Shown piece by piece: positions 18,110-37,700 of a stretch of 64,000 nucleotides of DNA. Position 1 is the first letter of the stretch; the number at the start of each line of letters is the position of its first letter. Location of the stretch: the IMG/VR virus record IMGVR_UViG_3300021387_001147, positions 23,961-87,960 of that record; one strand, given 5' to 3'. Source of the stretch: a virus (taxonomy: Duplodnaviria; Caudoviricetes). Made by a program: the position numbers and the translations under genes. The notes under the pieces are model-generated. The model had not been told where the DNA came from and ran no database searches. It was given only the letters and a program-made list of their open reading frames with translations.

Positions 18110-18207
18110 TATTTACATCTCCTTATATTTTTTTCTTGGACTTGAGTGAATTCGCAAGATTTACACATCCTATTATAGGAACCTATATATTTAAGGAGGA
18201 AATTACT

Positions 18208-18429
18208 ATGAAGGATGAAGAAGTATTGAAAATATTTAATTGCGGAGCAAAAACATTTGCGAACATACTAATAGTCTCTTTGTATAATAGCGATCCTAAG
18301 GCTGCAGAAGCATTACTTGATTCTGTAAGATCGATGGACACTATTGAAGCAAGAGTCGATGGAAGGGAGTTACATGTCAATTTATACCAAGCATTAAATA
18401 AACAATTAGAAGAGTATTTACATAGATGA
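18208..18429 (+). CDS. Small hypothetical cassette protein
   Basis: RBS aaggagg, ATG 18208, own promoter motif. Confidence 0.7.
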   Translation: MKDEEVLKIFNCGAKTFANILIVSLYNSDPKAAEALLDSVRSMDTIEARVDGRELHVNLYQALNKQLEEYLHR

Positions 18430-18502
18430 TTAGGTTCCTATACGGGATTGTATAATAAACTACAGTCCCTTATTTTTTCGCAACTTTTACATGTTCTATA
18501 AT

Positions 18503-18697
18503 AGAAAGGATCAATGGGTATTAAAGTACCTATGGCGGAACATATACGCAAATGGATCGCCTGTTTGGCAAGCAGGAATATGCGTTATTGCTAGAAGGTG
18601 TATCGCAACCAACGTGAAGCCTTATCCCATTTCGAGTTGGGAATCGGGGAAATAGGCATTCTTATGGATCCATAAGAATTACATCTTCTTATTTTTT
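18503..18697 (+). ncRNA. Putative structured ncRNA cassette
   Basis: Promoter motif, several hairpins, T-tract; only a 26-codon ORF with poorly spaced RBS. Confidence 0.45.
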
Positions 18698-18756
18698 TCG
18701 CAATATTTACACCTCATATTATAGCAGATAAAAACTATTTTATGGGAGGCATTATT

Positions 18757-19041
18757 ATGTATAACTTAAATTATGTATATGTAGTAGTTTCTATGGACAA
18801 AAAGGATTATATGATTGAACAGCTTATCAGCGATCTTGAAGGCTGGGCTAGACATCTGTATAGAGTCGATCGGAAGAATCGGGTCCTGTATAGAGGTCTT
18901 ATTCCAGTGAAAGAACTTGAGAGTCTGTTTACATTAGAAGCCATGAGTCCTTATGGAGCTGGCTACGAGATTACAGTTGACGGAGTACCTGCCAGGGATT
19001 ATGGTTGTTATCCTTGGAAAGTAGTTAGAGGGATTGCATAA
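18757..19041 (+). CDS. Small hypothetical cassette protein
   Basis: RBS ggagg; own promoter motif and downstream hairpin. Confidence 0.7.
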   Translation: MYNLNYVYVVVSMDKKDYMIEQLISDLEGWARHLYRVDRKNRVLYRGLIPVKELESLFTLEAMSPYGAGYEITVDGVPARDYGCYPWKVVRGIA

Positions 19042-19114
19042 ATTGCAGTCCCTTTAATTTTTACATATCCTATAATGTAACAATAACTCACAACTCAATA
19101 AAGGAGGAACGATT

Positions 19115-19417
19115 ATGGAAGAACTTATTAATGCTTTGAATGAACTATTCAGCAATGCACTGAAAGTAGGAATTGTTGAATACCCGGAAGACCCTGGATA
19201 CTTATATTTCAAAGAGGACAACGATTTGTACAAGAAAGTGGATAAGTTGTGTGATCAGTTATTGATTGACAGCTCCGGGCACTGCAACTGGACAAACATT
19301 AACACTCTTCGAAATTCTGGATTCAGGGTCTTCCCTGGAGATAAAGATAGTTTCGGCTGGCTAGTTGGATGTATTCAGAGAAATGGTGACCGTAAGCTTA
19401 CGTTTACTTATGGATGA
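19115..19417 (+). CDS. Small hypothetical cassette protein
   Basis: RBS aaggagga; own promoter motif and hairpin. Confidence 0.75.
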   Translation: MEELINALNELFSNALKVGIVEYPEDPGYLYFKEDNDLYKKVDKLCDQLLIDSSGHCNWTNINTLRNSGFRVFPGDKDSFGWLVGCIQRNGDRKLTFTYG

Positions 19418-19484
19418 TGTTTGTTACGACTTAAGAGCAACTTCTACAGCTGCTCTTAATTTTTCTATAAACTTATGAGAGTTA

Positions 19485-19513
19485 TTGACAACACGACGAA
19501 AACCCTATATAAT
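19485..19513 (+). promoter_or_regulatory. Consensus sigmaA promoter
   Basis: TTGACA-17 nt-TATAAT, perfect. Confidence 0.85.
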
Positions 19514-19591
19514 GCCTTAGTGAGGTACCAATCGCAAAACCTAAGGGCATACATAGGGTATTCTATCATATATGGATCCTAAGCAAATCCT

Positions 19592-19620
19592 ATTGTAGAA
19601 TATTTTCTAAGCCATGTCAA
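19592..19620 (-). promoter_or_regulatory. Convergent sigmaA promoter
   Basis: Minus strand TTGACA-17 nt-TACAAT. Confidence 0.7.
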
Positions 19621-19684
19621 GTGGTTTTGTGACGAAATAGTAAAATTTAAGTCACTCATTTTCATGAAAGGAGATCAAAACGAC

Positions 19685-19882
19685 ATGGTTTACGAACAGA
19701 TTTTAAAGTATTGCGAAGAGGAGAACATTTCGCTCTCAGAATTCGAGAAGAGATGCGAGATCGGAAATGGTACTGTAGGCAAATGGAAGGACGGTAAAAC
19801 GAGTCCTACGATTAAGACTTTGAATAAGATAGCTATTCATACGGATGTCACGATTGGATACTGGCTGGGAGGGATGGCATAA
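19685..19882 (+). CDS. XRE/Cro-like HTH regulator
   Basis: ISLSEFEKRCEIGNGTVGKWKDGKTSPTIKTLNKIA. Confidence 0.88.
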   Translation: MVYEQILKYCEEENISLSEFEKRCEIGNGTVGKWKDGKTSPTIKTLNKIAIHTDVTIGYWLGGMA

Positions 19883-20220
19883 TGTATGAGCTTAGCAGAA
19901 ACAGATTCAAAGAGCTTAAACACTTCTGTTTACAGTATCCTGAAATGAAGGAAAGGGCATCCAAATTATATTCTGAAGCCTATGAAAATGACTTTGATCC
20001 AACAGGCAAGATTGCTTCAGAACTTGCTGACATAAAGAAAGCGATGAATCTGATCGAGATGACAGCATTCAATGTCGGAAAATTCCCGGGGGAGAAAATT
20101 CTGAAAATCGTTACAGAAGGAAGGGTAGTGGGAGAAGTCTGTCCTGGTGATAATGACATTTGCGAGTGGCATCTTCGGAAGTTTTACTGGATGCTGGATA
20201 AAGCTAAGGGTGTGATTTGA
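19882..20220 (+). CDS. Conserved phage protein (possible regulator)
   Basis: ELKHFCLQYPE motif; coupled to HTH gene. Confidence 0.65.
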   Translation: MYELSRNRFKELKHFCLQYPEMKERASKLYSEAYENDFDPTGKIASELADIKKAMNLIEMTAFNVGKFPGEKILKIVTEGRVVGEVCPGDNDICEWHLRKFYWMLDKAKGVI

Positions 20221-20261
20221 AGCAAATATTACAACTCTTAAAATAGAAAGGAGTGATGAAT

Positions 20262-20432
20262 ATGAAAGAAATAATACTGTATTCCGAAGGTCATATCTTT
20301 GCCAGCGATGCAGAAAGGATAAAGCAAATATGTGACGAACTTAATCAAAAGCTGGCGGCTGAAGGATATCTTTCGGCATACGATGCCCTTGATGAAATCT
20401 ATGAAGCACTCGGCATTAAAGAGGCAGATTAA
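20262..20432 (+). CDS. 56-aa protein resembling the C-terminal domain of the 33815/35552 family
   Basis: Not in ORF track; RBS aaaggag; IFASDAERIKQICDELNQKL aligns with FKSDVETIQRACMSLTKRL. Confidence 0.6.
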   Translation: MKEIILYSEGHIFASDAERIKQICDELNQKLAAEGYLSAYDALDEIYEALGIKEAD

Positions 20433-20490
20433 ACATCTGCTTCTTATTTTGCAATTATTACATCTCCTAGTATAGAAAGGAGTGATATTT

Positions 20491-20697
20491 ATGACGGATT
20501 TAGAATTTCAGAAGGCTAGAGGAGACGAACATTTCAAAGCTTTAACAAAAGCCTGGTCTGATATTGAGTGTTATCAAAAGAGGATCAGTGAGCTGTATGA
20601 AAAGTTAAACGAGAAAGATTTGGAGATATATCGTCTCAAATGTCAGATCTCTGATTTGAAATTCGACTTAAATTATTACAAAACGAGGCAAGAGTAA
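20491..20697 (+). CDS. Small coiled-coil protein
   Basis: RBS aaaggag, heptad pattern. Confidence 0.7.
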   Translation: MTDLEFQKARGDEHFKALTKAWSDIECYQKRISELYEKLNEKDLEIYRLKCQISDLKFDLNYYKTRQE

Positions 20698-20753
20698 CAT
20701 CTTGCTTCTTTTTGCAATTATTACAGCTCCTAGTATAGAAAGGAGTGATATTT

Positions 20754-20990
20754 ATGGTAATAAAAACAAAGGAACTTAAGGACAGATTAAGCACTATGCG
20801 AGATCTTTATAATAAGCAGTCAGCACATGCTTATGCGGCACGAGTACAGTTGGAACTCGAATCATTTGATATTTGTGATTACGGTTATGTTACAATACCG
20901 CGAGCTGTTTATGATGCTGTTATATCAAATCTCAAGAATAGTGAAGCGATGTCCGACAAACTTCTTGAAGAATTTAATAAATTACAATAG
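20754..20990 (+). CDS. Small hypothetical cassette protein
   Basis: RBS aaaggag. Confidence 0.65.
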   Translation: MVIKTKELKDRLSTMRDLYNKQSAHAYAARVQLELESFDICDYGYVTIPRAVYDAVISNLKNSEAMSDKLLEEFNKLQ

Positions 20991-21093
20991 TATTGCTAAA
21001 AAGAGACTGGATTAACATCTGGTCCTCTTTTTTCAACATAATTTACACTTCCTATAATGAAACCTATTATCAATTTCATGAAAGGAGGAAATT

Positions 21094-21396
21094 ATGGATA
21101 AGGAAAGACTCAAAAAGGATGCTAAATTCTGCAAAGACAAGATTAAAGACTTTTGGCATGATCATAAACGAGAGATCAAAAGAACAATAAAGATCGGTGG
21201 AGTTTGTATGCTTATCGGATTTTTGAAAGGAGTTAAATTCGAGTCAATAAATACTGGAAAACTCATTGATAGACTTCCGAAAACACCAGACTTAGATGAT
21301 CTGGACGATTGGCTCGTTGCTTCTGGTATGTCAAAGAAAGAGCTTGAATACTTTATCAATGAATTGGCAGACAATGACCTTATTCCTATCGAATAA
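21094..21396 (+). CDS. Basic helix + single TM protein
   Basis: KDKIKDFWHDHK then IGGVCMLIGFL. Confidence 0.7.
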   Translation: MDKERLKKDAKFCKDKIKDFWHDHKREIKRTIKIGGVCMLIGFLKGVKFESINTGKLIDRLPKTPDLDDLDDWLVASGMSKKELEYFINELADNDLIPIE

Positions 21397-21491
21397 TTGA
21401 TGATTGGCGATAAGAGCATCTACTACAGGTGCTCTTAATTTTTACATATCCTATGATGAAATAAACTTTATATTTTCGAAAGGAGATACTT

Positions 21492-21800
21492 ATGGTAGAA
21501 AAAGAGGTATTGCAGAATTTTATAGGAATTAAATTCTGGGATTTAAAAAGGCAACTCGGTGTCGATAACGATTATTCCGACTATAAGCAGAATAATATTA
21601 GACAGACATATCTTGACGAATGCATCGAATTGTTACCGTATTTAATGACAAGAAGCGGAACTGTAGATGAGGCAAAAAGACTGACAAAATATTATTTTGT
21701 ACTAAAGGTGTCAGAGCATCGTCACGATCTCGATATCACCAAGGCCAGAATTGATTTGGGAATTGCAGAGCTCAAAGAAAAGTGTTGTAAGGAAATTTAG
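21492..21800 (+). CDS. Stand-alone paralog of phage RNAP helical module (copy 1)
   Basis: RQTYLDEC...SEHRHDLDITKARIDLGIAELKEK aligns with RNAP 62641-62826. Confidence 0.6.
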   Translation: MVEKEVLQNFIGIKFWDLKRQLGVDNDYSDYKQNNIRQTYLDECIELLPYLMTRSGTVDEAKRLTKYYFVLKVSEHRHDLDITKARIDLGIAELKEKCCKEI

Positions 21801-21877
21801 AAATGAAAAAGATGAGGAGTCCTAACAAGGGCTCTTCTTTTTGTTGAGTGAAACGAAACAGCAAGGAGGTTATATTT

Positions 21878-22147
21878 ATGGGACCAGATTTATTAGAAAT
21901 TTACATTCCATGGACTGGCGAGATTGTTAAGACAACCCATACGAATCTTATGAGCAGCATTAAGACATTAAACAAGCTATCTCGTCCTGTTGAGTTATGG
22001 TCGTTACGGTATGCGTTTGGATTAGAGCAAAGTGCATCGAGTAAAAGAACTGTCATTTTGACAGATTCATCTGAAAACCTTGGAGTCAGAACGGCAAGGC
22101 TAAACGACAAAATAGTATTTGAATTCTACATTCGAACTGATCTGTAA
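21878..22147 (+). CDS. Hypothetical protein
   Basis: RBS aaggagg. Confidence 0.55.
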   Translation: MGPDLLEIYIPWTGEIVKTTHTNLMSSIKTLNKLSRPVELWSLRYAFGLEQSASSKRTVILTDSSENLGVRTARLNDKIVFEFYIRTDL

Positions 22148-22202
22148 TTTTTACAGCTCCTTTAATGACACTAGCATTATTATTCAAAAGGAGGAATTCA
22201 GT

Positions 22203-22463
22203 ATGAAAACACCTAAAAATGAAGTGGTAAACGTTGGAATTGAAACACTTAAAAGTCTTATTATGAAGCTTGCATATGGAGAAGGAGAATCAGATGATTT
22301 TGATAGCATTGTTGCTATTAATGAAATACTCAAAGTTCTTCTCGACGAGGTAGCTGCAATTGAGGCCGATCGTGATCAGTACAAGGAAGCCGCATCAAGA
22401 TTAAGAAACGATAAAACTATTGAATTAGAATGGGATAAAGTTGATAAAAGTAGTGTCAAATGA
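22203..22463 (+). CDS. Small helical cassette protein
   Basis: RBS aaggagga, own promoter motif. Confidence 0.7.
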   Translation: MKTPKNEVVNVGIETLKSLIMKLAYGEGESDDFDSIVAINEILKVLLDEVAAIEADRDQYKEAASRLRNDKTIELEWDKVDKSSVK

Positions 22464-22613
22464 TTGGACTGACCCTATGTGATGATATTTTACATGGGGT
22501 CTTTTCTTTGCAATTGTTGCATCTTTTTTTTAATGATACAATAATGCTTTTTCGCAAATTCTACACTCCATATAATGTAAGTAATAACTAACTTTTCAAA
22601 AGGAGGAAACATT

Positions 22614-22817
22614 ATGACAAACGAAAACTATGCGAACACTCGTGTAACGAAGAAGTACCGTATGGCTGTAGTTTCAGCAACAGCAGCACATCTTCAGAAT
22701 GCAAGAGCATCTGAGAATGGTATTGTGACGGTTGACCAGAGCTATCTTGCAGCGGTATTAAAATGCTTGAGTGCAGAAAAGACCGTTGAAGTCAGAAAGA
22801 TTGATGAGGAAAAGTAA
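22614..22817 (+). CDS. Small cassette protein
   Basis: RBS aaggagga. Confidence 0.7.
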   Translation: MTNENYANTRVTKKYRMAVVSATAAHLQNARASENGIVTVDQSYLAAVLKCLSAEKTVEVRKIDEEK

Positions 22818-22921
22818 CAAGTTATGAAACTAAAAATAGGAGAGGTACTGCTTCTCCTATTGTTTTTCTAATTGCTTCATGATATTCTATTCGTACACTT
22901 TACTAAAAGGAGGAGAGACCT

Positions 22922-23137
22922 ATGAAAGTGACGTTTGATGAGTATCTTGAAGCTTGTAACAGAAGCGTTGAAAATCCAGATATTCCTATGCCGATTCCAT
23001 GTGCTAGCTGTGAGGATGAAATGATGGAATACGATTCAGATAGTGAAAGTTATATTTGCCCATCTTGTGGAAGAGAAGTGCTACTTGAAGATAAAGACGA
23101 ATATCTTGAGGACATTGTATCAGGAAAGTATGAATAA
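22922..23137 (+). CDS. Zinc-ribbon protein
   Basis: CASC...CPSCG. Confidence 0.7.
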   Translation: MKVTFDEYLEACNRSVENPDIPMPIPCASCEDEMMEYDSDSESYICPSCGREVLLEDKDEYLEDIVSGKYE

Positions 23138-23242
23138 TAGAATTTCAAAAGGCTCTATCAGAAATGGTAGGGTCTTTTCTATTCGTAAAAATTACATCGG
23201 CTATAATGCAATGTAAACATTTATTTCAGAAAGGAGAAAATT

Positions 23243-23554
23243 ATGGCTTGGAAAGAAACTGTAAACAAATTCATGGAGCTTGGAAAGAGATTCATGCCTG
23301 AGGATTATGATTTCTCTGAATACAAGGAAGAGGGACATGGCAGTAAAAACAGCCGCAAAGTCCGGCAGGTCTATATTGGTGAATGCGTAACCACATTACC
23401 AATCATGATCTTAAAAGGAGCCGATGACGATGAGCTGATGAGGATCACTGTTATGTACTACGTACTTCTGAAGTCAGAGAAACTTGGGCTTGACTTCGGA
23501 AAGGCATGGCGCGAACTCAGGATCGACGAGATTAGAGACAAGTATACCTTCTAA
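23243..23554 (+). CDS. Stand-alone paralog of phage RNAP helical module (copy 2)
   Basis: RQVYIGE...MILKGADDDELMR...KSEKLGLDF...RIDEIRDKY. Confidence 0.65.
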   Translation: MAWKETVNKFMELGKRFMPEDYDFSEYKEEGHGSKNSRKVRQVYIGECVTTLPIMILKGADDDELMRITVMYYVLLKSEKLGLDFGKAWRELRIDEIRDKYTF

Positions 23555-23673
23555 GTTATATTTATGCTATCGAGAAGGAGGGACTTAGCACGAGACTGTT
23601 GCAAGTCCTTTCTTTTTCGCAATTTTAACAGCTCCTAGTATAGAAAAGAAGAGGCTTTTGAAAGGAGAGTATT

Positions 23674-24039
23674 ATGGCAAATAACGAACTTAGTATTGAT
23701 TGCATACTGTATATCGGCACATTATTTGAAAAATGGCGTAATCTGCTTTCGAAAGAAGACATTGCTGAATTACATAAGAAGTATGCTTTAGCACCAGATG
23801 TGACAATAATGGCAGAAAAAGCTTATAGAAAGAGGCAGAGATGCATTGGCGAAGCCGTGAGACTCATTTATGCTATTTTAGAGGATGAGGGTCTGGCCAT
23901 TACGTCAATGAATTTCAACAACGCTATGAGATATCTGCTTGTATCTATGGATTGTGTGAAGTATGCTCTTGATGTCGACTTCGCAAGAGCAGATAATGTC
24001 ATCGCTGAAATGAAAGAACAGTACATATTGAAACATTGA
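23674..24039 (+). CDS. Stand-alone paralog of phage RNAP helical module (copy 3)
   Basis: RQRCIGEAVRLI...MDCVKYALD...ARADNVIAEMKEQY. Confidence 0.65.
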   Translation: MANNELSIDCILYIGTLFEKWRNLLSKEDIAELHKKYALAPDVTIMAEKAYRKRQRCIGEAVRLIYAILEDEGLAITSMNFNNAMRYLLVSMDCVKYALDVDFARADNVIAEMKEQYILKH

Positions 24040-24151
24040 GCTTGTAATTGCTAACTAAATAATTTACAAAGCCTCTTCTTTTTTTTTTTCGCAAATTTAA
24101 CATTTACTTTAATGATATACATTAACTATTTATTATAAAGGAGGAAATGAC

Positions 24152-24328: not shown

Positions 24329-24336
24329 TATTTTCG

Positions 24337-24367
24337 AAAGCTTCAGGCAGAAATGTCTGGGGCTTTT
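24337..24367 (+). terminator. Hairpin terminator, identical copy at 37644-37674
   Basis: aaagcttcaggcagaaatgtctggggctttt. Confidence 0.75.
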
Positions 24368-24430
24368 AATTTTTACAAGTCCTATGATGAGATACTTGTT
24401 AACCAGTATTCAAAGCAAAGGAGGAAAATT

Positions 24431-24802: not shown

Positions 24803-24810
24803 TCTCACAA

Positions 24811-24846
24811 AAGGGCTTGCAGTTAATGCTGCAGGCCTTTATTTTT
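24811..24846 (+). terminator. Hairpin terminator, 25-bp identical copy at 28432-28456
   Basis: aagggcttgcagttaatgctgcagg + T-tract. Confidence 0.7.
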
Positions 24847-24905
24847 CTGCTCAAATATTATGAGAGCTGGTGAGTGCAGTGAACGAACTAACAAAAGGAG
24901 AGCTT

Positions 24906-25403
24906 ATGGACAAACTTTATATTCATTACGGGTCTGATCATTTAATCAAAGAGAAAGTTACTGAAATGAAACATGAAGCAGGAAGCAATATGTATATAAA
25001 TAAGCCTGACTTCGGACTTTGGGGCTCTCCAGTTGACTGTGAATTCGGATGGAAGGAGTGGTGCGAATCCGAAGACTTTCATACGGATACTCTTGATCAA
25101 TATTTTGTATTCAAGGTGAAAGACGGAGCCAAGATTTTTACAGTGAGAAAGAATGATGACGTATCAGACTATCTTCTCACTCCATATCTGTATACGCTCG
25201 AATATATGTTCCCACCGAAATACATAGATTTCAACAAAATCATGAAAGAATACGACGGCATGGAATTAATTCACGGCGATAACTATATGGATCTTCATTA
25301 TGGGTATTTCTACAGTTGGGATGTTGATTCAATAGTCGTCTGGAATCCGGATGTTATCGAAGTAGTTAGGAAGTATACGCAAAAACTACACATACTAAGA
25401 TAG
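24906..25403 (+). CDS. Conserved phage hypothetical protein
   Basis: KP..GLWGSP and SWDVDSIVVWN motifs. Confidence 0.7.
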   Translation: MDKLYIHYGSDHLIKEKVTEMKHEAGSNMYINKPDFGLWGSPVDCEFGWKEWCESEDFHTDTLDQYFVFKVKDGAKIFTVRKNDDVSDYLLTPYLYTLEYMFPPKYIDFNKIMKEYDGMELIHGDNYMDLHYGYFYSWDVDSIVVWNPDVIEVVRKYTQKLHILR

Positions 25404-25710
25404 AAAGGAGGTTGACCGGGAGGCCGGCAGAGGCACATCTATGGCCATATCTATGTCATCTCTATTTCACATCTAAGTAACGCTTTGAGTTAGATTGCAA
25501 GTAATTCAAGGCGTTATATCTTTTTGAGAAAGGAGGCGAAAAAGTGGATACACTGGGCATTGTTTGTATTGTTTTTACGATTATCATTCAAACTTTTTGT
25601 CTGGGAGAAGATTTGGGTAATTTTAAAGCGGCCGTTAAAGTTACCTGTATCTCTTTCTGGACCATGTTACTCGCTGTGTTACTATTTAAACTAATATGAA
25701 AGGAACTAAA

Positions 25711-26029: not shown

Positions 26030-26314
26030 ATGTGGATTTTAATTTTGACATTTATAATCGGCTTACTGATGGGCATTGTGATAGGCATTCCTGTAACACT
26101 ATATCTCTATAAAGCAGGAACTCTTGTAATTGATCAATCTGATCTTATCACAGACAAATACTCATTCGAAATAGATAAGGATCTTGCTAAGCTGCCTCGT
26201 GAAGATTATATTTCAATGAAGATCAAAGTAATAAACGAGCGTCCAGAAGTCGTTACTGAAGAGCATGTTAAGAAGTATTTAGACGTGCCTGAAGATGACC
26301 TTGACCCGCAATAA
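26030..26314 (+). CDS. N-terminal TM protein
   Basis: MWILILTFIIGLLMGIVIG; RBS aaggag. Confidence 0.7.
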   Translation: MWILILTFIIGLLMGIVIGIPVTLYLYKAGTLVIDQSDLITDKYSFEIDKDLAKLPREDYISMKIKVINERPEVVTEEHVKKYLDVPEDDLDPQ

Positions 26315-26369
26315 AAACAATGACTTTAATGAAACTATAAATTTGGTCTTAGAAAGGAGACACGGAAAC

Positions 26370-26768: not shown

Positions 26769-26872
26769 TTTCAATCGGTTTAAGGCCCTGTGTGATATTT
26801 TACATGGGGTCTTAATTTTTACAAGTCGTATAGTGATACTAATTAAAATGTTTCTGAGAAAGGAGAAATGTT

Positions 26873-27220: not shown

Positions 27221-27290
27221 GTATTATTAAGGGCTTGTGGCAAATGCTACAGGTCCTTATATTTTTCGCAAAAACTACACATACTAAGAT

Positions 27291-27453
27291 AGAGAGTAAA
27301 TACAAACTGAAGACTAGTTTCAGTTAAGTATTGAGCTCAAGGGATAAGAGCTAGTGGTTCTAGTATCCTAAACCCTAACCAGGCATGGATATTGTTCAAG
27401 TAGAGTGGGAATCTTGAAAAGGATTCTGCACCCCTTGCAACTCTTATTTTTTT
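27291..27453 (+). ncRNA. Putative multi-stem ncRNA cassette
   Basis: Promoter motif, no RBS or ORF, three internal hairpins, 5'/3' closing stem, T-tract. Confidence 0.55.
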
Positions 27454-27549
27454 CTGCTCGAACGTAGTGAGAACTGTGCGAGTGTAACGAGTTTTTCGCA
27501 AATTTAACAGCCACTATGATAGAAAATATTTTATAAGGAGGACGAAAAT

Positions 27550-27750
27550 ATGTTTAGTTTTGAAAGGTCTGTAGCAAAAGTAAGATTGCATTATCATGCC
27601 AATCGAATCGACATTAACAACGCACTTAATCAGTTGCATTTGATGTCTGACGAGAGGAATGAGGAAAGTAATAAGAAGCATACTATGATCCTATTCACAG
27701 ATGTATATCCAAGACTTCTTGGCAGAGATATTTTTAAAGATAAGGAATAA
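27550..27750 (+). CDS. Small cassette protein
   Basis: RBS aaggagga. Confidence 0.7.
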   Translation: MFSFERSVAKVRLHYHANRIDINNALNQLHLMSDERNEESNKKHTMILFTDVYPRLLGRDIFKDKE

Positions 27751-27857
27751 TGAAAAGGGCATCTTTTACAGGTGCTCTTTCTTTTTCGAACGAACCGCAA
27801 ATATTTCATGGATTTTAATGAAAGAAAGGGCTTTCTAATAAAGGAGGAACTTATATT

Positions 27858-28130
27858 ATGAAACGTAACAGAGTCATAAGAATCAACATTTATACTGAAG
27901 GCTATATTGTAGCGGCAGTATGGTTTCTGGCAGCGGCAATAGCTCTGATGACGGCAGGTCATGTAACAGAAAACGTTAAGTACATGATGCTTGTCGGTAT
28001 CGGAAGTTTGTTGACGACTCTTACACAGAGATTGATAACAGAATACAAGAATAGACAAAAAATAAAAAGAATGATGATTGATACATATGGCAAAGATGAA
28101 TACGAAAGGTACATGAAAAGTAAGAAATAA
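27858..28130 (+). CDS. Two-TM small protein
   Basis: RBS aaggagga; two hydrophobic helices. Confidence 0.7.
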   Translation: MKRNRVIRINIYTEGYIVAAVWFLAAAIALMTAGHVTENVKYMMLVGIGSLLTTLTQRLITEYKNRQKIKRMMIDTYGKDEYERYMKSKK

Positions 28131-28260
28131 CTCTTAACTAATTCAAGCCCTTTCTTTTTCTGCTCGAATGGAGTGAGAACTGGTGAGTATGACGAACCGC
28201 AAATATTTCATGGCTTTTAATGATACAATTCAGATTATATTTGAAAGGAGAACTGCAGTT

Positions 28261-28425: not shown

Positions 28426-28528
28426 AGGCATAAGGGCTTGCAGTTAATGCTGCAGGTCCTTACATTTTTGCAATTTTTACATTCTTTATTATAGAACATA
28501 TTGATCTAAATAAAGGAGGAAAAGGATT

Positions 28529-28768: not shown

Positions 28769-28889
28769 TCCTCCTCTTTATTTTTTTTCTGACTGAATTG
28801 AAAATAGTATATTATAGAACAAAATGTTCGCAATATTAACATCTCCTATGATAGAACAATACATGTTTTATTATGAAAGGAGAAGAATT

Positions 28890-29066: not shown

Positions 29067-29170
29067 AAAAGAATTCGGGGATCTATTACAGGTCCCTGAT
29101 ATTTTCGCAGTTTTTACACTTCTTATAATGAATCAAGATGGAATGAATTCATATAAAGGAGGAAAATATT

Positions 29171-29344: not shown

Positions 29345-29433
29345 TATTGAAGGGGATCTATTACAGGTCCCCACAATTTTTACAACTCCTTTAATGAAAC
29401 ATTCTTAAATGATACTTTAAAGGAGGATTAATT

Positions 29434-29730
29434 ATGTATTATAGTTACAAACAAGCATTAAAAGATCTATTTGAGATAGGCGAAAAGGACCTGTGGGTAG
29501 TTCGTGCTTTCACTGAGAACGATGTAGCAGGTACTGAGGTGTTCTCTATTTATGGAACGAAAAAAGAAGCCAAAGCCTATATTAAGAGTGTAAGAAATTA
29601 TTATAAAACAAGTAGATTTTATGAGTTTCTTAGAGAAAATATAGTGACTGGCTCTTTTAGAGTCAAAGAAGTAGGAACGAACAATATACTGCTGAATAAA
29701 TTTCAGTTAATTCACGAAAGAGCTGCATAG
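29434..29730 (+). CDS. Small cassette protein
   Basis: RBS aaggagga. Confidence 0.65.
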   Translation: MYYSYKQALKDLFEIGEKDLWVVRAFTENDVAGTEVFSIYGTKKEAKAYIKSVRNYYKTSRFYEFLRENIVTGSFRVKEVGTNNILLNKFQLIHERAA

Positions 29731-29812
29731 GCTCTTTTTTTTCTGCTTGAGTATTTTCGCAATTAATACACTCCTTATAATGAAATACTTATTAAATTAA
29801 GGAGGTTCGACT

Positions 29813-29959: not shown

Positions 29960-30073
29960 TTCGAAGGAGATGCTGGACGAATGATATTTACATCTGGCAT
30001 TTCCTTTCGCATTTTTTACACTTCTTATAATGAATCAATAGCGATTCGTTTTCAGAAAAGGAGGAAAAATAAT

Positions 30074-30139: not shown

Positions 30140-30220
30140 CAACTGAATCGACATAACTAAGATGGGGACAGGATTATCTTGTCCTCTCTTTCTTTTTTCT
30201 TTTTGAAAGGAGGATTATAT

Positions 30221-30652: not shown

Positions 30653-30694
30653 TTCGTATTTTCAATCACATTAATGAAGAGGGGAGCATAAAAA

Positions 30695-31015
30695 ATGGCA
30701 CTTGTAGATAAAAATGAAATGATGGAACTTGGCAAATACTTTATTAATGGCATCGCTTACGGTGGATCTGATCCAGTTAAGGATTATATCCTGAAAGATA
30801 AGCCGTCAATTAAACAGAAGCTTGAGACTAAAGCAACTCTTCTGAAATGCCTTAACACAGCTAAGAAGATGAAGGCAAAAGGTGCTGATCGTAATGACAT
30901 GCTGGATGCACTCACTTATGCTTATATTTTGCTTGAAACCGAAGAGCACACTATGGATCTTGGAAGAGCTAAGGCTGACTTTAGAATGGATGAGATTCAG
31001 AGGAAGTATACTTAA
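30695..31015 (+). CDS. Stand-alone paralog of phage RNAP helical module (copy 4)
   Basis: MKAKGADRNDM...ETEEHTMDLGRAKADFRMDEIQRKYT. Confidence 0.6.
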   Translation: MALVDKNEMMELGKYFINGIAYGGSDPVKDYILKDKPSIKQKLETKATLLKCLNTAKKMKAKGADRNDMLDALTYAYILLETEEHTMDLGRAKADFRMDEIQRKYT

Positions 31016-31075
31016 ACTGTTTGAGTGTAACGAAAATCTTATGAAGTATTCATGATATTTCTAGGGAGGAAGTTT

Positions 31076-31498: not shown

Positions 31499-31571
31499 TA
31501 TTTCCGCAATTTTTACCTTTCGTATAATGAGACGATGTAGATCTCATTAATTTTTGAAAGGAGAAAGAATT

Positions 31572-31955: not shown

Positions 31956-31961
31956 TCTCAA

Positions 31962-31991
31962 AACCCTGTGGCAGAAATGTCATGGGGTTAT
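31962..31991 (+). terminator. Hairpin, identical 30-bp copy at 48691-48720
   Basis: aaccctgtggcagaaatgtcatggggttat. Confidence 0.7.
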
Positions 31992-32102
31992 ATTTTTCTG
32001 TTTGAACGTAGTGAAAACTGGCGAGTGTAATGAGCGCGAAAGGAGAAATCTAATTAGGCTATCAATTTTGCTCGAATATTATGAGAAAAAAGGAGGCTTA
32101 AG

Positions 32103-32601: not shown

Positions 32602-32828
32602 GTAGCTATAAACCGAAGCAGATCTCAGTATTAAAGAGGGCAAAATTCCCGTGTAAAGACTGCAGCGACAGACACACAGGATGCCATGATGAATGCATGA
32701 AGTATAAGGAAAGCATTGATAGATTTCACAATGCAAAAGGCGAAAACGAATCTGTTTACAAGGATCTCTATAAAGGAATTTATAGGGGTCCTTCTATTTA
32801 TTATGGAACAAGTAGGAGGTATAAATGA
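32592..32828 (+). CDS. Cys/His-rich small protein (paralog of 39060)
   Basis: PCKDCSDRHTGCHDEC. Confidence 0.6.
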   Translation: MVMSSYKPKQISVLKRAKFPCKDCSDRHTGCHDECMKYKESIDRFHNAKGENESVYKDLYKGIYRGPSIYYGTSRRYK

Positions 32829-33388
32829 AACGAACAATCATAAGCTGGATTATAGGAGTTATATTTGGGATCATTGGATGCATTGCCGCAATCGCAGGAG
32901 TATTTAAGAAACTTTGCAATAGCATGCTTATTAGAGAGGAGATCATTTCATCGATTAAGAGCATTATCACTATAGCTTTGTTTGGTTCAAAGAGGGTTAC
33001 ATACGCTAACTCGTACACAGGCAAACCTAACAAGTATTCGGCATCATACTATTATATTAATGACGCTGTTCGTAGGGTTGAAGAAGTTAAGTTTGATAAT
33101 CATAAGATAGCAGTCGAAATGATCTACGACATTAGGGATATGCTGAATAAATGCGGAGGCAGGATCACCGTAGAGGAAGTTTTAGACATTATATACGGAG
33201 GTACGAATCACACTGAAAAGTATCTTGATAAGCTGTTCGGCTGGGATTCTCCAGACTCATTCAAGATAGGAACAACAGGGTTTTCTGAAAACAGTAAGTA
33301 TTATATTTATGTAGCAGATAAACCGCACAAACTTGAGGAGGATGATAGTTATGTACAAGCAAGTGCCACTGAAGTGCAAAGACAGTAG
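32825..33388 (+). CDS. TM-anchored protein related to the 38156 family
   Basis: N-terminal TM; I..ML...GGRITV.EV...FGW. Confidence 0.55.
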   Translation: MKRTIISWIIGVIFGIIGCIAAIAGVFKKLCNSMLIREEIISSIKSIITIALFGSKRVTYANSYTGKPNKYSASYYYINDAVRRVEEVKFDNHKIAVEMIYDIRDMLNKCGGRITVEEVLDIIYGGTNHTEKYLDKLFGWDSPDSFKIGTTGFSENSKYYIYVADKPHKLEEDDSYVQASATEVQRQ

Positions 33389-33599
33389 AAAGTGTTTCGG
33401 CAAGGCTGAAAAGCTGTTGAGTGGAAGAAAGAAGGATTATATTTGCAGAATCCTTCTTGAGAATTATGGAAGTAAAGGATATGAAGATGGAGCTTGTCCT
33501 TTCTGTAAACCGATTCAGGACGTAACTAATGGTAAAGTGTACAGTAAAATGACAGCTCAGTACAAATAAATCAGATCAATTGAATAAAGGAGAAAGATT

Positions 33600-33818
33600 A
33601 TGTCGACTTTAAAGATTTACGATTTCACGAAAAGAAACCAGTGGGAAAACTTCAAGAGAAGGATGACAACTCCTAACGAAAAGAAAATTGTTGAGTATTT
33701 CGAGCTCATGGAAAAGCAGATCAATCTCTTAACAGCTTACATTCATAACATGGAAGTTCAGCAGGCTAAGGAAGCCCTGGAAGCCATGATTGATGATAAG
33801 AAGGAGGAAGAATCATGA
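33600..33818 (+). CDS. Small helical protein
   Basis: RBS aaaggag. Confidence 0.6.
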   Translation: MSTLKIYDFTKRNQWENFKRRMTTPNEKKIVEYFELMEKQINLLTAYIHNMEVQQAKEALEAMIDDKKEEES

Positions 33819-34663
33819 ATATCGGACGGATATTTAAATCAGCTATCAGATCGGCGAAAGATCATTCAGGTACTATCTGTGCTGTTACTGCTATGGCTGG
33901 CGTTGTAGCTACTGCTATTTTTTCAGGTAAGGCAGCTGTAAGGGCTGATCACGAAATTGATTGCGATATGACAAGAAAAGAGCGAGCCAAAGTATACGCC
34001 AGATGTTACTGGAAGACCGCAGCTGTTGGTGCTGCTACATGTGGACTTATATTTGGCAGCGATAGAATTCATGTGAGAAAAGAAGTTGGGCTTGCTGGTC
34101 TTGCAGCACTCTGGAAAAGCAAGTATGTAGATCTTGATAAGGCAACACTTGAGACTGTTGGAGAGGAGAAGTATAAGGAGATTCAGAAGACAGTTATCGA
34201 GAACAAGATCAAAGAGAACCCGAATATTCCTGAGAGACCTGCAAACGCAACTGCTGATACGATTCTTGTGTATGAACCGTATACAGATCAGTATATTTGG
34301 ACGACAAGAGAGCAAATCTGGTATGCACTTTATGAAGCTAACTTAAGACTTCAAAAGGATGGTGAAGTTAAGCTGTCTGTTATCATCGATTATCTCGGTG
34401 GTGAATGGGATCCGATGGGAGACATGATAGGTTGGAATTACGATAACGAAGTCCAGGCAGAAGCATGGAGCTATTATGATGGAGGAATTGAATTGCTTTC
34501 AGATGTGTATAGAAGGGTCGAGGACAAAGGTGAACCAATACCGACTTCATATGTAAAGAAAGGCGACCAAGTAAGTCCTGGTGATGCAATTTGCCTATTC
34601 TATACTGTTGATCCGGAGACTCAGACGCCAGAAGATATGATCTATTTTGATAATGATAAGTAA
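33815..34663 (+). CDS. DUF6353-like family protein (paralog 1)
   Basis: KDHSGTICAVTAMAGVVATA...YARCYWKT...IGW; family name recalled, not searched. Confidence 0.6.
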   Translation: MNIGRIFKSAIRSAKDHSGTICAVTAMAGVVATAIFSGKAAVRADHEIDCDMTRKERAKVYARCYWKTAAVGAATCGLIFGSDRIHVRKEVGLAGLAALWKSKYVDLDKATLETVGEEKYKEIQKTVIENKIKENPNIPERPANATADTILVYEPYTDQYIWTTREQIWYALYEANLRLQKDGEVKLSVIIDYLGGEWDPMGDMIGWNYDNEVQAEAWSYYDGGIELLSDVYRRVEDKGEPIPTSYVKKGDQVSPGDAICLFYTVDPETQTPEDMIYFDNDK

Positions 34664-34678
34664 AGGAGGATTATATGC

Positions 34679-35452
34679 ATGGCAAACTGCTATAAGACCA
34701 AGAAAAAGGAAGAACGCAGAGAAAAGTTATATTTGTTTCTGAGAAAAAACCCCGGGAAGGAATTTTCCTGGAAACAATTGAGTCCAGTCCTTAATGTGAA
34801 ATACAATGCAATTTGTCGTGATATGGATGCACTCACTGAAGAATATGGAGATATAGTAAGAACCAGCATTGGGATCATGTACAATGGGAAGATTATCATG
34901 GAGGAAAATAAAGACAGGTATCCTATCACGAAGAACAATGAGGGATATTCTGATCCAACTGCTGCTGCAACACTTATCAAGGAGCAGAAGGAAGAGTCTA
35001 GACAGCAGGATCAAAGGAAAGAGATTACTAACCCTAAGCCAAGTGAAGTCTGGCATGTGGCAAGATCGGATGGCAAGGACGATGATATTCTGTTAGTGCT
35101 TGCTGTTGATACTGACAAGAGATTTGCTACATGCTGCCCCTATTGTATAGAATCTGTAGGTGCTCCTTCTGAATACAATAGGCTTTTCACGAAGCCTCTT
35201 AAATACTTCAAAACGAAAGCTTGGGGAATGCCTTTGTCTGTTATGATTGAGACTCGCAATGCTCTTCGCGAATACTTCGAAATTGATCCTGAACTTATTG
35301 AAGTCGAAAAGATCGTAGAGAAGCCTGTTACTGTAGATGCTCCGGCTGTTACAACTGACAAATTATATTCTCAGCTTGAAATGGATGCTGCAATTGCCAG
35401 AGTGAAAGCCGATGCATATGAGGAATGCTTCAAGGCTCTTGCAAGGAGATAA
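34679..35452 (+). CDS. HTH-containing protein
   Basis: N-terminal winged HTH, KNNEGYSDPTA motif. Confidence 0.55.
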   Translation: MANCYKTKKKEERREKLYLFLRKNPGKEFSWKQLSPVLNVKYNAICRDMDALTEEYGDIVRTSIGIMYNGKIIMEENKDRYPITKNNEGYSDPTAAATLIKEQKEESRQQDQRKEITNPKPSEVWHVARSDGKDDDILLVLAVDTDKRFATCCPYCIESVGAPSEYNRLFTKPLKYFKTKAWGMPLSVMIETRNALREYFEIDPELIEVEKIVEKPVTVDAPAVTTDKLYSQLEMDAAIARVKADAYEECFKALARR

Positions 35453-35551
35453 TTCGCAAAAATTTCATATCACATAATGAGTCGGAGAAATCCGGCTTTT
35501 GTTTTTCATGTAGTTATATCTTTGAAGCTATTATCAAGAAAGGAGAAAAGG

Positions 35552-36400
35552 ATGAATCTTGGTAAGGTACTAAAATCAACCGGCAAGTCGATACTTGGAT
35601 TTGCCAATAAGAACTCGCACATCATAAGTGGATGCGCTGCAATTGCAGGGGTAGCTGTTACGGCTATCCTTGCATATAAGTCATATCCGAAAGTGAATAG
35701 AATTATCGAAGATCAGAAAGAAAAGATGGATGAGCTCGATGAAGTAGTTAATATTCCGGAAGAAGAGCTCAAGAGATGTCGTCGTGAGATCACTGTTGAT
35801 ACATGTAAGAGTCTTGCTCCAGCACTTGCACCCGCTATCGTGAGTGGTATTGCTACATGCTCCCTCATGGGATTCTCTATTATATCTGGTAATAAGAAGA
35901 TTGCGGCTGCTACGAGTCTTGCTGCTTTATACGAAACGGCAAACAGAGAGATCTTAAACAAGACAAAAGAGCTCGTTGGCGAAGAAAAGGCTGAGGAGAT
36001 TAGACAGGAGGCACTAAAAGAAGAAGTCAAGAATAAATTCTGTGATATTTCAGAAGAAGAGATGGAACAGATAATCATGCAGGCAGATGGCGGAGATACC
36101 TGGTTCTATGATCCGAATATTGGAAGGCCATTCAAGTCTGATGTGGAGACAATTCAAAGAGCTTGCATGAGTCTAACTAAGAGGCTGATTAGTGGTCAGG
36201 AACCGTATATAGACTATAATGACTTTCAATCAGCAATAGGTCTTCCGCAGACAATGTTTGGATCATTGGTGGCATGGGGAGGCACTTCACCAGCACGGGA
36301 GATTGAACCGAATCTTAATAACACAATCAGAATTGGTGAAAAAGCCATGATCATTCTTGATTGGTACACAAGACCGACATCACAATATAGAAATCTCTGA
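35552..36400 (+). CDS. DUF6353-like family protein (paralog 2)
   Basis: KNSHIISGCAAIAGVAVTA...FYDPNIGRPFKSD...AW. Confidence 0.65.
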   Translation: MNLGKVLKSTGKSILGFANKNSHIISGCAAIAGVAVTAILAYKSYPKVNRIIEDQKEKMDELDEVVNIPEEELKRCRREITVDTCKSLAPALAPAIVSGIATCSLMGFSIISGNKKIAAATSLAALYETANREILNKTKELVGEEKAEEIRQEALKEEVKNKFCDISEEEMEQIIMQADGGDTWFYDPNIGRPFKSDVETIQRACMSLTKRLISGQEPYIDYNDFQSAIGLPQTMFGSLVAWGGTSPAREIEPNLNNTIRIGEKAMIILDWYTRPTSQYRNL

Positions 36401-36907
36401 ACAGTAGAAATCGTAACGGAAGGGGGTGATTGTATTCTATGGACTTTTTAAAGTGTCCTAAATGCGGACGTTACATGATCCCCTATATCGTTACGACAGA
36501 TAAAACGCATTATAGATGTGTATGCGGGTATGATACAGCAAAGAATAAGATTATATTTTGGAGGTGGATTTTTGACTAGTCTTGGAAATTGGAAAGATCT
36601 CGTTGATTTCGTTCAAACACTTCAGAAAGCTGAAAAAGAGCTTAGAAACAGGAGATTTATTAAGGAAGCTAATGCAGTTAAGGATTCTTACAAGATTATC
36701 CTTTTGATAGCCGATGAGATGAATAAGGAGGGAGAGAATGGCTAATTATATTCTGAAGGATGACGACAATAAAGTTGTAGATGAATGCGCTGATTGCGAT
36801 TACAGCCAGTTCGATTATACATCTAAAAAATGGATCTGTATTTCCGATGATCCGTGCGATGCAGCACTTAGCGTTAAGCATATTAAAGAAAACAGAAGGA
36901 GGAAAAA

Positions 36908-37288
36908 GTGATGGCAGCTACTATCACAGTTGAGAAGAAAGACGAAAGATCTAAGCTTCAGAAGGCTAAAGACTTCGCTATTAAGTATCGCTATGGTATT
37001 ATCGGAGGAGCAACGGCCGGAGTATTATATTTCCTGTGGTTTAAAAGTGGATGGAACACTAAGGCTAAAGTCGATTTGAATATATTCAATGAATCTCTTC
37101 CTGCTATTGTCGAGAAAAGTGGACGAATAGGAGCATTCAGCTTTTATGATTGGATGGCTGAAAGAGTACCGGAGGCATTAAAGCTTTGTGATGAGTTCAG
37201 TGACAAGCATCCGGAGCTTTCGAATATTCGTGATTATTTTATGAAAAATGAAGAGATTATGAAGACTCTTGAGGTCTGCAAAAAGTAA
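36908..37288 (+). CDS. Basic helix + single TM protein
   Basis: KAKDFAIKYRYGIIGGATAGVLYFLW. Confidence 0.65.
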   Translation: MMAATITVEKKDERSKLQKAKDFAIKYRYGIIGGATAGVLYFLWFKSGWNTKAKVDLNIFNESLPAIVEKSGRIGAFSFYDWMAERVPEALKLCDEFSDKHPELSNIRDYFMKNEEIMKTLEVCKK

Positions 37289-37352
37289 CTATCGCAAAAA
37301 TTACACTTGTTATAGTAGAACCTAAAGTTCAACAATTATATTTCAGGAGGAA

Positions 37353-37598
37353 ATGAAAATGAACAACGAAGAAAACAAGGTTGTAGAAAACACAGAAGAA
37401 ACTGTAGAAGAGATCAAAGAAGAAGGAAAATTCAAGAAGGGCCTTAAGACTGTCTGGAAGTACACGAAGAAAGCTATTCCGGCTGTAGCAGCTGGCGTTG
37501 GCTGCTTCGTACTTGGCAGACTCTCAAAAGGGGCTGTTGATGTTCCTGATGAGATCAAAGAAGCAGTTGAGACTGTAACCGAGAACGTAACTGAGTGA
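37353..37598 (+). CDS. Acidic/basic + single TM protein
   Basis: KKGLKTVWKY..AIPAVAAGVGCFVLG. Confidence 0.7.
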   Translation: MKMNNEENKVVENTEETVEEIKEEGKFKKGLKTVWKYTKKAIPAVAAGVGCFVLGRLSKGAVDVPDEIKEAVETVTENVTE

Positions 37599-37700
37599 TA
37601 TTTGATTACAACTGAATATGGAACTATTGGTTTGGTGAAGATAAAAGCTTCAGGCAGAAATGTCTGGGGCTTTTGATTTTCTAAATAAGGAGGAATAGAC

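Follow-up and report, generated by a model that had tools for sequence, protein, structure and literature searches.

How does a temperate phage transcribe a long string of small genes, and how do these genes change places between relatives? This question is raised by a 64,000-nucleotide stretch of phage DNA, here called the window, which comprises bases 23961-87960 of the 87,960-bp IMG/VR record IMGVR_UViG_3300021387_001147, rated complete by CheckV. All coordinates are window positions unless another record is named. The genome is that of an 88-kb temperate siphovirus of the Lactococcus-1706 / Faecalibacterium FP_oengus / actinophage AM-AU lineage, and the genes in question form one array:

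18151-37680 (+), early accessory array with 31 promoters and about 50 small open reading frames (ORFs), dense to about 31.6 kb, operons beyond

A three-box motif, CGCA-N5-WACA-N5-TAWWAT, recurs between the genes. The best explanation of the whole, which we judge rather probable, is an array of units made of terminator, private promoter, Shine-Dalgarno (SD) sequence and ORF, read by a single-chain RNA polymerase that the phage encodes and exchanged at the junctions between units.

The motif matches exactly nine times, compared with 0.00 in 100 shuffles, and 35 times with up to two mismatches, compared with 4.2 in shuffles. An iterated weight matrix applied to the whole 87,960-bp record returned 34 sites on the plus strand and none on the minus strand; all of them lie within 18153-59836, and the structural half of the genome has none. 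The geometry is rigid. The only distance between CGCA and the hexamer is 14 nt (12 plus-strand matches at 14, zero or one at each other spacing from 10 to 19), and the inner spacing of the boxes is 5+5 only. The motif, its example coordinates and the fixed 14-nt distance, all reported in the initial annotation, are therefore correct. Sites follow terminators and lie 12-44 nt upstream of SD-led start codons. All 34 sites have a purine directly after the hexamer and then (A)GAA, and the promoter as a whole comprises a 24-nt tripartite element plus about four conserved nucleotides downstream. The 34 sites are:

18153-18176 (+), motif promoter
18479-18502 (+), motif promoter; SD begins 3 nt past the hexamer
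18699-18722 (+), motif promoter
19053-19076 (+), motif promoter; hairpin arm in place of CGCA
20221-20244 (+), motif promoter; SD abuts; left breakpoint of a five-cassette replacement
20450-20473 (+), motif promoter; SD abuts; junction 98% identical to that at 20713
20713-20736 (+), motif promoter; SD abuts
21035-21058 (+), motif promoter
21434-21457 (+), motif promoter
22143-22166 (+), motif promoter
22553-22576 (+), motif promoter; breakpoint at +9
23184-23207 (+), motif promoter
23618-23641 (+), motif promoter; recombined with the 24090 promoter in the relative G056
24090-24113 (+), motif promoter
24365-24388 (+), motif promoter; breakpoint at +9
25378-25401 (+), motif promoter of an ORF-less structured unit of about 120 nt, terminator near 25519
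26307-26330 (+), motif promoter
26811-26834 (+), motif promoter
27267-27290 (+), motif promoter (97% identical to 25378) of an ORF-less unit of about 160 nt, terminator near 27445
27497-27520 (+), motif promoter
27796-27819 (+), motif promoter
28198-28221 (+), motif promoter; first base is a breakpoint
28469-28492 (+), motif promoter
28829-28852 (+), motif promoter
29106-29129 (+), motif promoter
29372-29395 (+), motif promoter; breakpoint at +9
29758-29781 (+), motif promoter
30008-30031 (+), motif promoter
31505-31528 (+), motif promoter of an eight-gene operon
35455-35478 (+), motif promoter; 792-nt insertion exactly upstream in G056
37293-37316 (+), motif promoter
48658-48681 (+), motif promoter outside the array; hairpin 48688-48721 directly after
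49416-49439 (+), motif promoter outside the array, middle/replication region
59836-59859 (+), motif promoter of the endonuclease-exonuclease-polymerase operon, 990 nt 5' of the polymerase start; same position in about 40 relatives

These sites do not have the makeup of a sigma-A promoter. The -35 position, 17 nt upstream, is occupied by terminator T-tract and CG only, and C or T stands where a TG extension would be. Matches of the sigma-70 type occur at the chance level both in the array (80 vs 63) and around the polymerase operon (51 vs 44). Recognition of the -10 element by sigma-A depends on A at hexamer position 2. Most hexamers of the window have this A together with T at position 6, whereas those of FP_oengus and many IMG/VR relatives do not. 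FP_oengus has 15 same-strand sites of the form CGCG-N5-xxCA-N6-CTTTAT-GGAA, many metagenomic relatives have the hexamer TTTTAT, and neither CTTTAT nor TTTTAT has A at position 2. Moreover, since the SD begins 3 nt after the hexamer in four sites, a transcript starting about 7 nt downstream of the hexamer would have its SD cut. Sigma region 2 (Sigma70_r2) was not found anywhere in the phage. The lack of a -35 box, the hexamers of the relatives and the SD sequences abutting the hexamer thus uphold the view that this is a non-sigma-A motif; at the level of sequence, it is a predicted promoter private to the phage lineage and not a host sigma-A promoter.

The candidate for its reader is encoded in the last operon of the window:

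60826-63690 (+), predicted 954-aa single-chain two-barrel RNA polymerase, presumed reader of the motif; DFDGD at residues 558-562, helix-turn-helix (HTH) modules near residues 58-90, 105-135 and 928-953

We fetched 80 IMG/VR loci solely because they encode a relative of this 954-aa protein (41-50% identity, G+C 31-57%). The window matrix found 57 matches on the polymerase strand of these loci and none on the opposite strand, and in about 40 of the 80 a match lies 900-1050 nt upstream of the polymerase start, the range that includes the site of the window itself. One relative, G005, has 16 forward and no reverse sites; they cluster in its small-gene array, except for one that precedes the polymerase operon. 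Arthrobacter phage Dynamite, which infects an Actinobacterium, has 10 forward and no reverse sites in its small-gene array, of the form CGCG-N5-TACA-N5-TATAAT, and a motif site 950 nt upstream of its polymerase gene. A search with the motif alone recovered 48 IMG/VR records, 31 of which carry the polymerase family, phrog_4291. When restricted to the 19 records that are at least 90% complete, phrog_4291 is clear in 17 and weak in one, and the contig of the nineteenth ends inside the helicase gene, just before the expected polymerase operon. In three lysogen genomes (3.5-5.6 Mb), 26 of 27 pattern matches fall into four clusters that each adjoin a polymerase gene; with the pattern reversed as a control, there were 0-2 matches. 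Since the matches are confined to prophage clusters, host genes do not use this signal. The IMG/VR phages G006-G009 (68-95 kb), which have the same motif type, share with the window core genes and promoters only.

The protein itself has the hallmarks of a polymerase. Its DxDGD catalytic loop, DFDGD, does not vary among 29 family members. An AlphaFold model (pLDDT 79.7) made from those 29 sequences was matched by Foldseek to the solved structures of QDE-1 (E 1.8e-8), P23-45-type gp64 (E 1e-5), plant RDR2, gp96 and crAss gp66 (0.011), and as modeled the protein has the two-barrel polymerase fold. A search of PDB by sequence found no homolog of the 954-aa protein. Pfam and NCBIfam describe the HTH modules at 105-135 and 928-953 as sigma-70 region-4-like. 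The HTH recognition helices are conserved across the polymerase family, and both the helices and the motif boxes are nearly invariant in it. Members of this family were predicted to be polymerases from sequence (PMC2919709; bioRxiv 10.1101/842583); in the literature we found no report of an activity, promoter or start site for the phage-1706/FP_oengus/actinophage enzymes, and no paper describing the motif. Because motif and polymerase gene co-occur, a site is conserved before the polymerase's own operon and there is no alternative sigma factor, the 954-aa polymerase presumably reads the motif, and the promoter probably serves this single-chain enzyme. Transcription by the phage polymerase was proposed in the initial annotation, with the host enzyme plus an activator as the alternative. 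The co-occurrence of motif and gene agrees with the former; the act of reading we infer.

We then considered how the promoters are distributed over the genes. When SD-led ORFs were called and overlaid with promoters and terminators, the array proved to contain 31 promoters for about 50 such ORFs. Twenty-one of the promoters drive a single ORF, and 17 of these 21 units end in a terminator that precedes the next promoter. Nine promoters drive two to eight ORFs, and one (27267) drives the ORF-less structured unit of about 160 nt. Twenty-nine promoters sit between 18.1 and 31.6 kb; the part from 32.1 to 37.3 kb is operonic. The array had been described as about 35 self-contained cassettes with a promoter for nearly every ORF. 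It is an array of that kind, but the number needs correction to 31 promoters, about 50 ORFs and 17 closed one-gene units, and the rule of one promoter per ORF holds for 18.1-31.6 kb and fails for the operonic part. Terminator-like hairpins with T-tracts number 31, compared with 8.7 in shuffles, and 23 of them are on the plus strand. The array thus has the PeSL-style composite, a promoter and a terminator stem-loop between small genes of a hyperplastic region. The hairpins of note are:

18444-18469 (+), terminator hairpin and T-tract
20685-20708 (+), terminator hairpin and T-tract
21005-21024 (+), terminator hairpin and T-tract
21411-21437 (+), terminator hairpin and T-tract
21814-21837 (+), terminator; right breakpoint of the five-cassette replacement
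22471-22501 (+), terminator hairpin and T-tract
22835-22861 (+), terminator hairpin and T-tract
24336-24367 (+), terminator; 97% identical copy at 37642
24811-24840 (+), terminator; breakpoint; same hairpin family as 27228 and 28431
26780-26815 (+), terminator hairpin and T-tract
27228-27259 (+), terminator hairpin and T-tract; family of 24811 and 28431
27754-27780 (+), terminator hairpin and T-tract
28431-28462 (+), terminator hairpin and T-tract; family of 24811 and 27228
29075-29099 (+), terminator hairpin and T-tract
29352-29372 (+), terminator hairpin abutting the promoter
29716-29738 (+), terminator hairpin and T-tract
30164-30186 (+), terminator hairpin and T-tract
31962-31989 (+), terminator hairpin and T-tract
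35479-35498 (+), hairpin directly 3' of promoter 35455
37642-37675 (+), terminator at the array end

A further element of the junctions is D9, a 24-nt repeat, TCTGCTCGAA-N4-GTGAGAACTG, which occurs in five copies after terminator T-tracts, all on the plus strand, and in none of the shuffles. By its position, D9 looks like an optional spacer module between terminator and promoter:

24846-24869 (+), D9 junction repeat, directly 3' of a terminator
27453-27476 (+), D9 repeat; first base is a breakpoint in G056 and run X6
28159-28182 (+), D9 repeat; first base is a joint end
31997-32020 (+), D9 repeat; breakpoint at 32006
48726-48749 (+), D9 repeat outside the array

The junction modules resemble one another more closely than do the genes on either side. 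Two unrelated ORFs follow promoter-SD-start junctions (20447 and 20710) with 98% identity, the terminators at 24337 and 37644 are 97% identical, and several hairpin families recur. We compared the window with G056, a 29.5-kb IMG/VR contig found via the array's 112-aa protein (19882-20220) at 88% identity. The contig is colinear with window positions 19817-51058 in 15 blocks of 84-97% identity with 14 events between them, and 27 of the 28 breakpoints are no more than 20 nt away from a promoter, terminator, D9 repeat or gene end. Seven of the events fall in 12.2 kb of dense array. Between the first base of promoter 20221 and terminator 21814, five cassettes have given way to five others, which carry the same promoter type. 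One deletion runs from promoter 23618 to promoter 24090 with a 28-nt overlap, another from the terminator/promoter junction at 24374 to terminator 24811, and a third from D9 to D9 (27454 to 28198). For the remaining three events, all replacements, the ends are position +9 of a promoter, a start codon or a D9 repeat; altogether, three breakpoints of G056 are at +9 within promoters. The private segments of G056 have motif promoters of their own (23 sites, all forward), and of the 13 private ORFs 12 are unrelated to any ORF of the window.

Gut metagenomes gave a similar picture. These are the runs that hold DNA of the phage; the bovine gut runs hold partial relatives. In Logan contigs from four of them, 36 of 44 joint ends lie in junction space, which makes up 26% of the sequence, and both ends do so in 14 of 22 joints, compared with 1.5 expected. 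Cassettes are thus gained, lost and swapped among relatives, and the breakpoints do lie at junction modules or gene ends, as the idea of reshuffling between junction repeats had predicted; the pattern that would have refuted it, an invariant order with no breakpoints at junctions, did not appear. Genome comparison thus establishes the junction modules (promoter, terminator families and D9) as the apparent sites of cassette deletion, insertion and replacement, and with this exchange the array behaves as a fast-turnover bank of accessory genes.

Two runs from bovine gut, X6 and X15, contain backward joints, from 28419 to 27228 and from 32086 to 24895, at homologous hairpins or D9 repeats. These fit either a changed cassette order in relatives or excised circles of the PeSL type.

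Who reads the promoter deserves a closer look, since several observations weigh against the phage polymerase. Of the 34 window hexamers, 25 would also be acceptable as sigma-A -10 boxes. The CGCA box is not strictly required: seven sites lack it and have the 3' arm of a hairpin, or TGCA or AGCA, in its place. The co-occurrence of motif and polymerase is partly shared ancestry, and another lineage-conserved protein may be the reader or a cofactor. Among the runs holding the phage no RNA run is listed, and one labelled metatranscriptomic is kept as contigs, from which transcript starts cannot be read. Finally, the polymerase gene lies behind its own type of promoter, which leaves the first round of expression unexplained, and a search for a packaging tag, by blastp of the first 95 polymerase residues against all ORFs of the phage, returned nothing below E 0.8. 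Other reservations apply to the exchange of cassettes: the short sides of many metagenome joints measure 22-30 nt and lie in repeated sequence, and half of the G056 events (7 of 14) fall in the operonic 32-51 kb, at gene ends that have no motif promoter. Two features of the array matter in weighing these points:

19485-19513 (+), the sole perfect sigma-A consensus promoter within the array (12/12), upstream of the cro-like gene
19685-20220 (+), cro-like HTH gene (19685-19882) and conserved 112-aa gene (19882-20220, phrog_11237)

A host RNA polymerase could read CGCR and xACA with a phage specificity factor or activator that replaces the -35 contact, and the two-barrel enzyme would then serve late transcription or priming, say. 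The TATAAT-like hexamer of the window suits this reading, and so does the perfect sigma-A promoter at 19485, which drives the cro-like HTH gene and the 112-aa protein, a possible factor; a polymerase gene behind its own promoter type is also awkward if the enzyme is the sole reader. The 112-aa product is indeed a candidate for a lineage-conserved cofactor, expressed with the cro-like gene from the sigma-A promoter; searches of Pfam, NCBIfam and the ESM Atlas gave it no family and no informative cluster. Yet just one phage record has a detectable copy, compared with 250 for the polymerase. The relatives' hexamers without A at position 2, the SD abutting the hexamer in four sites and the missing sigma region 2 all speak against the host enzyme, and the same motif serves phages of Clostridia and Arthrobacter, whose hosts' housekeeping promoters differ. 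We regard a specificity factor as unlikely, if well short of negligible. Quite improbable, in our view, is a reading in which the sites are ordinary host promoters of the -10-only kind and the two upstream boxes are the operator of a phage repressor, comparable to SPBRE/MrpR of SPbeta or to the stoperators of Cluster A mycobacteriophages. The phage is temperate, as its integrase indicates, and MrpR of SPbeta binds repeated SPBRE in about ten promoter regions (PMC10516654). But no repressor gene is evident near the array on either strand, the boxes keep an invariant phase with the hexamer at all sites, the FP_oengus hexamer is not sigma-A-like and the motif is unused in host genomes outside prophages. 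The motif is also kept in Dynamite, which has no integrase annotated in the 38 kb examined; Galaxy is reported to be the only Arthrobacter phage with one (PMC5513430).

Two other explanations concern the shuffling. A tyrosine recombinase gene borders the array on its left:

16901-18109 (-), phage tyrosine integrase (Pfam Phage_integrase) with N-terminal zinc ribbon; left border of the array; not IntI

With this gene abutting the array and hairpins bounding the cassettes, the initial annotation called the array integron-like, which would have the recombinase capture cassettes site-specifically at the hairpins. This part did not survive, and we give it hardly any credence. The recombinase scores 64.5 bits against the cut-off of 220 of the NCBIfam Xer/integron-integrase model. 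The hairpins are G+C-rich stems with T-tracts, which is the geometry of terminators and not of attC; the cassettes each have their own promoter, whereas integron cassettes are promoterless. Not all breakpoints are at hairpins; some lie within promoters and some at D9 repeats, and Dynamite has a comparable small-gene array with no integrase annotated in the 38 kb examined. Alternatively, breakpoints at junctions may be simply the viable products of illegitimate recombination that selection has kept, as in general phage mosaicism, with no homologous exchange. The seven operonic events fit this: they lie at gene ends without the motif, and the breakpoint pattern is therefore due in part to selection for intact genes. 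As the whole account of the shuffling we think it doubtful, since neighboring blocks overlap by 7-28 nt at several junctions, which implies flanking direct repeats, three breakpoints fall at the same +9 position within promoters, one deletion joins D9 to D9 and another promoter to promoter, and junctions up to 98% identical flank unrelated ORFs. Selection for intact genes contributes alongside homology at repeats.

The reading of the array by the phage polymerase can be put in a more specific form, for which four cassette ORFs are relevant. These are paralogous to polymerase residues of about 571-675, where a helical segment directly follows the catalytic loop (blastp E 1e-4 to 1e-7):

21492-21800 (+), ORF paralogous to the polymerase segment (~571-675)
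23243-23554 (+), ORF paralogous to the polymerase segment (~571-675); replaced in G056
23674-24039 (+), ORF with a C-terminal part paralogous to the polymerase segment (~571-675); absent in G056
30695-31015 (+), ORF paralogous to the polymerase segment (~571-675)

Similar stand-alone copies also occur in the IMG/VR records G008 and G028. In the explanation that we favor, conserved HTH modules would contact the CGCR and xACA boxes, which are one helical turn apart, the A/T-rich hexamer would be the melted segment, and RNA would start at the conserved purine 1-2 nt past the hexamer. Since the polymerase operon carries the same promoter, expression of the enzyme would feed back on itself, and a first supply of enzyme would be needed before this feedback. 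Tentatively, and as a possibility more than an expectation, we propose beyond this that the enzyme is self-sufficient and sigma-independent and that its three HTH modules, two N-terminal and one sigma-4-like at the C terminus, each read one promoter element, with RNA starting where just described. The promoter would double as a substrate for the recombination that makes the early region a bank of swappable genes, and the four stand-alone copies of the segment would tune or protect the enzyme.

Several side observations concern the polymerase. Within residues 19-41, the motif S33 G34 R35 Y36, G39 S40 G41 is nearly invariant in the 29 members, and residues 1-41 are modeled as disordered (pLDDT <50); judging from its conservation, the motif looks like a peptide signal. 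Outside the window, in the interval between terminase and portal, a 253-aa ORF (G000:C1:6421-7182) shares H-(H/Y)-G ... (K/R)-(W/Y)-x-K-G with the polymerase N terminus and, like the polymerase, has a C-terminal sigma-4-like HTH (PF08281, 26.1 bits). Its neighbor, ORF 3219-4679, has the same first 7 residues. The likeness of the 253-aa head-region ORF may be relevant to whether the polymerase is packaged, or to a second partner that binds DNA. Among four prophage polymerase genes of sequenced bacteria, three (G053:C5:204565-207291, G054:C7:192287-195016 and G055:C1:33971-36679) were aligned with a single in-frame stop, TGA or TAA, within the match, which may be decay, recoding or an artifact at the alignment edge; locus L001 has one too, and the window gene has none.

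Other observations concern the promoters. The 97%-identical promoters at 25378 and 27267 head strongly folded units without an ORF (25378-25519 and 27267-27445), each ended by a terminator, which are candidate small RNAs. Rfam gave nothing at gathering score in the whole window, both units included. At 48658-48765, upstream of the gene at 48786-49385, a strong terminator-like hairpin (48688-48721) comes 7 nt after a motif promoter and precedes a D9 repeat, an arrangement that resembles an attenuator. A near-perfect leftward sigma-A promoter, TTGACA-17-TACAAT at 19620-19592 (-), faces the rightward one at 19485-19513 (+). Both sit in the 268-nt gap 19417-19685, the left side of which has no repressor gene, and they may be the site of first action of the host polymerase or a lysis/lysogeny switch.

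The contents of the cassettes are mostly unfamiliar. PHROG families are absent for 22 of 30 array ORFs tested, and a membrane span is predicted in about 15 of 55. The array encodes two XRE-type HTH proteins and two or three DUF6353 proteins; Pfam, run on eight array ORFs, found HTH domains in two and nothing else. An ORF at 22922 was considered as Lar-like (E 0.002) and rejected, the resemblance being to a zinc ribbon only. PADLOC made no credible match to the 10 largest array ORFs, and the role in host takeover or anti-defense that had been suggested for the genes is neither supported nor excluded.

The array has a defined place in the genome. Tail and host-range genes occupy 1-16.7 kb (+), followed by the integrase and, to its right, the long run of small plus-strand genes. 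A 1334-aa helicase-primase-polymerase gene lies at 54036-58040; it belongs to phrog_4210, the family of phage 1706 GP55 (PMC12205980). To its right come a helicase gene (58572-59789) and then the last operon, which encodes an endonuclease, an exonuclease and the 954-aa polymerase (60826-63690, phrog_4291). The order of small-gene array, DNA polymerase, helicase and polymerase operon is common to FP_oengus, Arthrobacter phage Dynamite and the window, and FP_oengus also has its integrase left of the small-gene array. A megablast search with the array against 50,697 phage records returned zero matches.

Phage-private pairs of polymerase and promoter such as that of T7 are workhorses of biotechnology, and single-chain two-barrel polymerases are the closest minimal relatives of cellular RNA polymerase. 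The motif described here is a concrete, testable candidate promoter for the phage-1706/FP_oengus/actinophage enzyme family, which has cultured members in Lactococcus phage 1706, Arthrobacter and Gordonia phages and FP_oengus. A promoter that is also a seam would explain the variable early regions of a phage lineage widespread in gut and soil.

How does the array compare with known systems? Like integron arrays, it is a string of single-gene units beside a tyrosine recombinase; unlike them, it has no IntI, attC or attI, and its cassettes have promoters and terminators of their own instead of a single Pc. T7, T3 and SP6 promoters are likewise contiguous (about 25-30 nt), phage-private, A/T-rich before a purine-rich start and present in many copies on one strand, but their right-hand single-subunit polymerases have an unrelated fold, whereas here three boxes stand one helical turn apart and the start is a prediction. 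The temperate Firmicutes phage SPbeta encodes a single-chain two-barrel DNA-dependent RNA polymerase, YonO (PMC5467207), as is predicted here. YonO serves one late operon from P_YONO, a promoter of undefined sequence, in contrast to the roughly 34 copies that head early and middle genes here, and the 954-aa enzyme, which has HTH modules, is of another family (phrog_4291, the "phage 1706" family). Thermus phage P23-45 (PMC10770324) is similar in having single-chain two-barrel polymerases, gp96 and gp64, with a repeated promoter of their own before early genes. The P23-45 promoters were mapped by cappable-seq and ChIP-seq and are unrelated in sequence, and these phages are virulent; in the present phage the start sites are predicted. 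Helix-turn-helix modules, present in our enzyme, are not mentioned in the P23-45 paper. The small-gene arrays of Arthrobacter Clusters AM and AU (PMC5513430) belong to the same lineage and occupy the same genome position; transmembrane segments in about a third of the ORFs are a further feature in common. Their description mentions no promoter or motif and does not analyze cassette exchange, and the array here is larger, about 20 kb of an 88-kb genome.

The PeSLs of the T4-type phages RB49 and phi1 (Arbiol et al. 2010, PMC2839356) are likewise composites of promoter and terminator hairpin between small, non-essential genes of a hyperplastic region, at which close relatives differ by insertions, deletions and replacements. 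Those promoters are strong, sigma-70-like and host-read, in virulent myoviruses, whereas here a tripartite, lineage-private promoter with no -35 box is found in a temperate siphovirus, along with an extra 24-nt repeat. In its behavior the array is closest to PeSL regions, yet the sigma-70-like promoter that defines them fails. A non-host promoter, it appears, can fill the role of a PeSL, as a portable signal for expression and a seam for the exchange of accessory genes.

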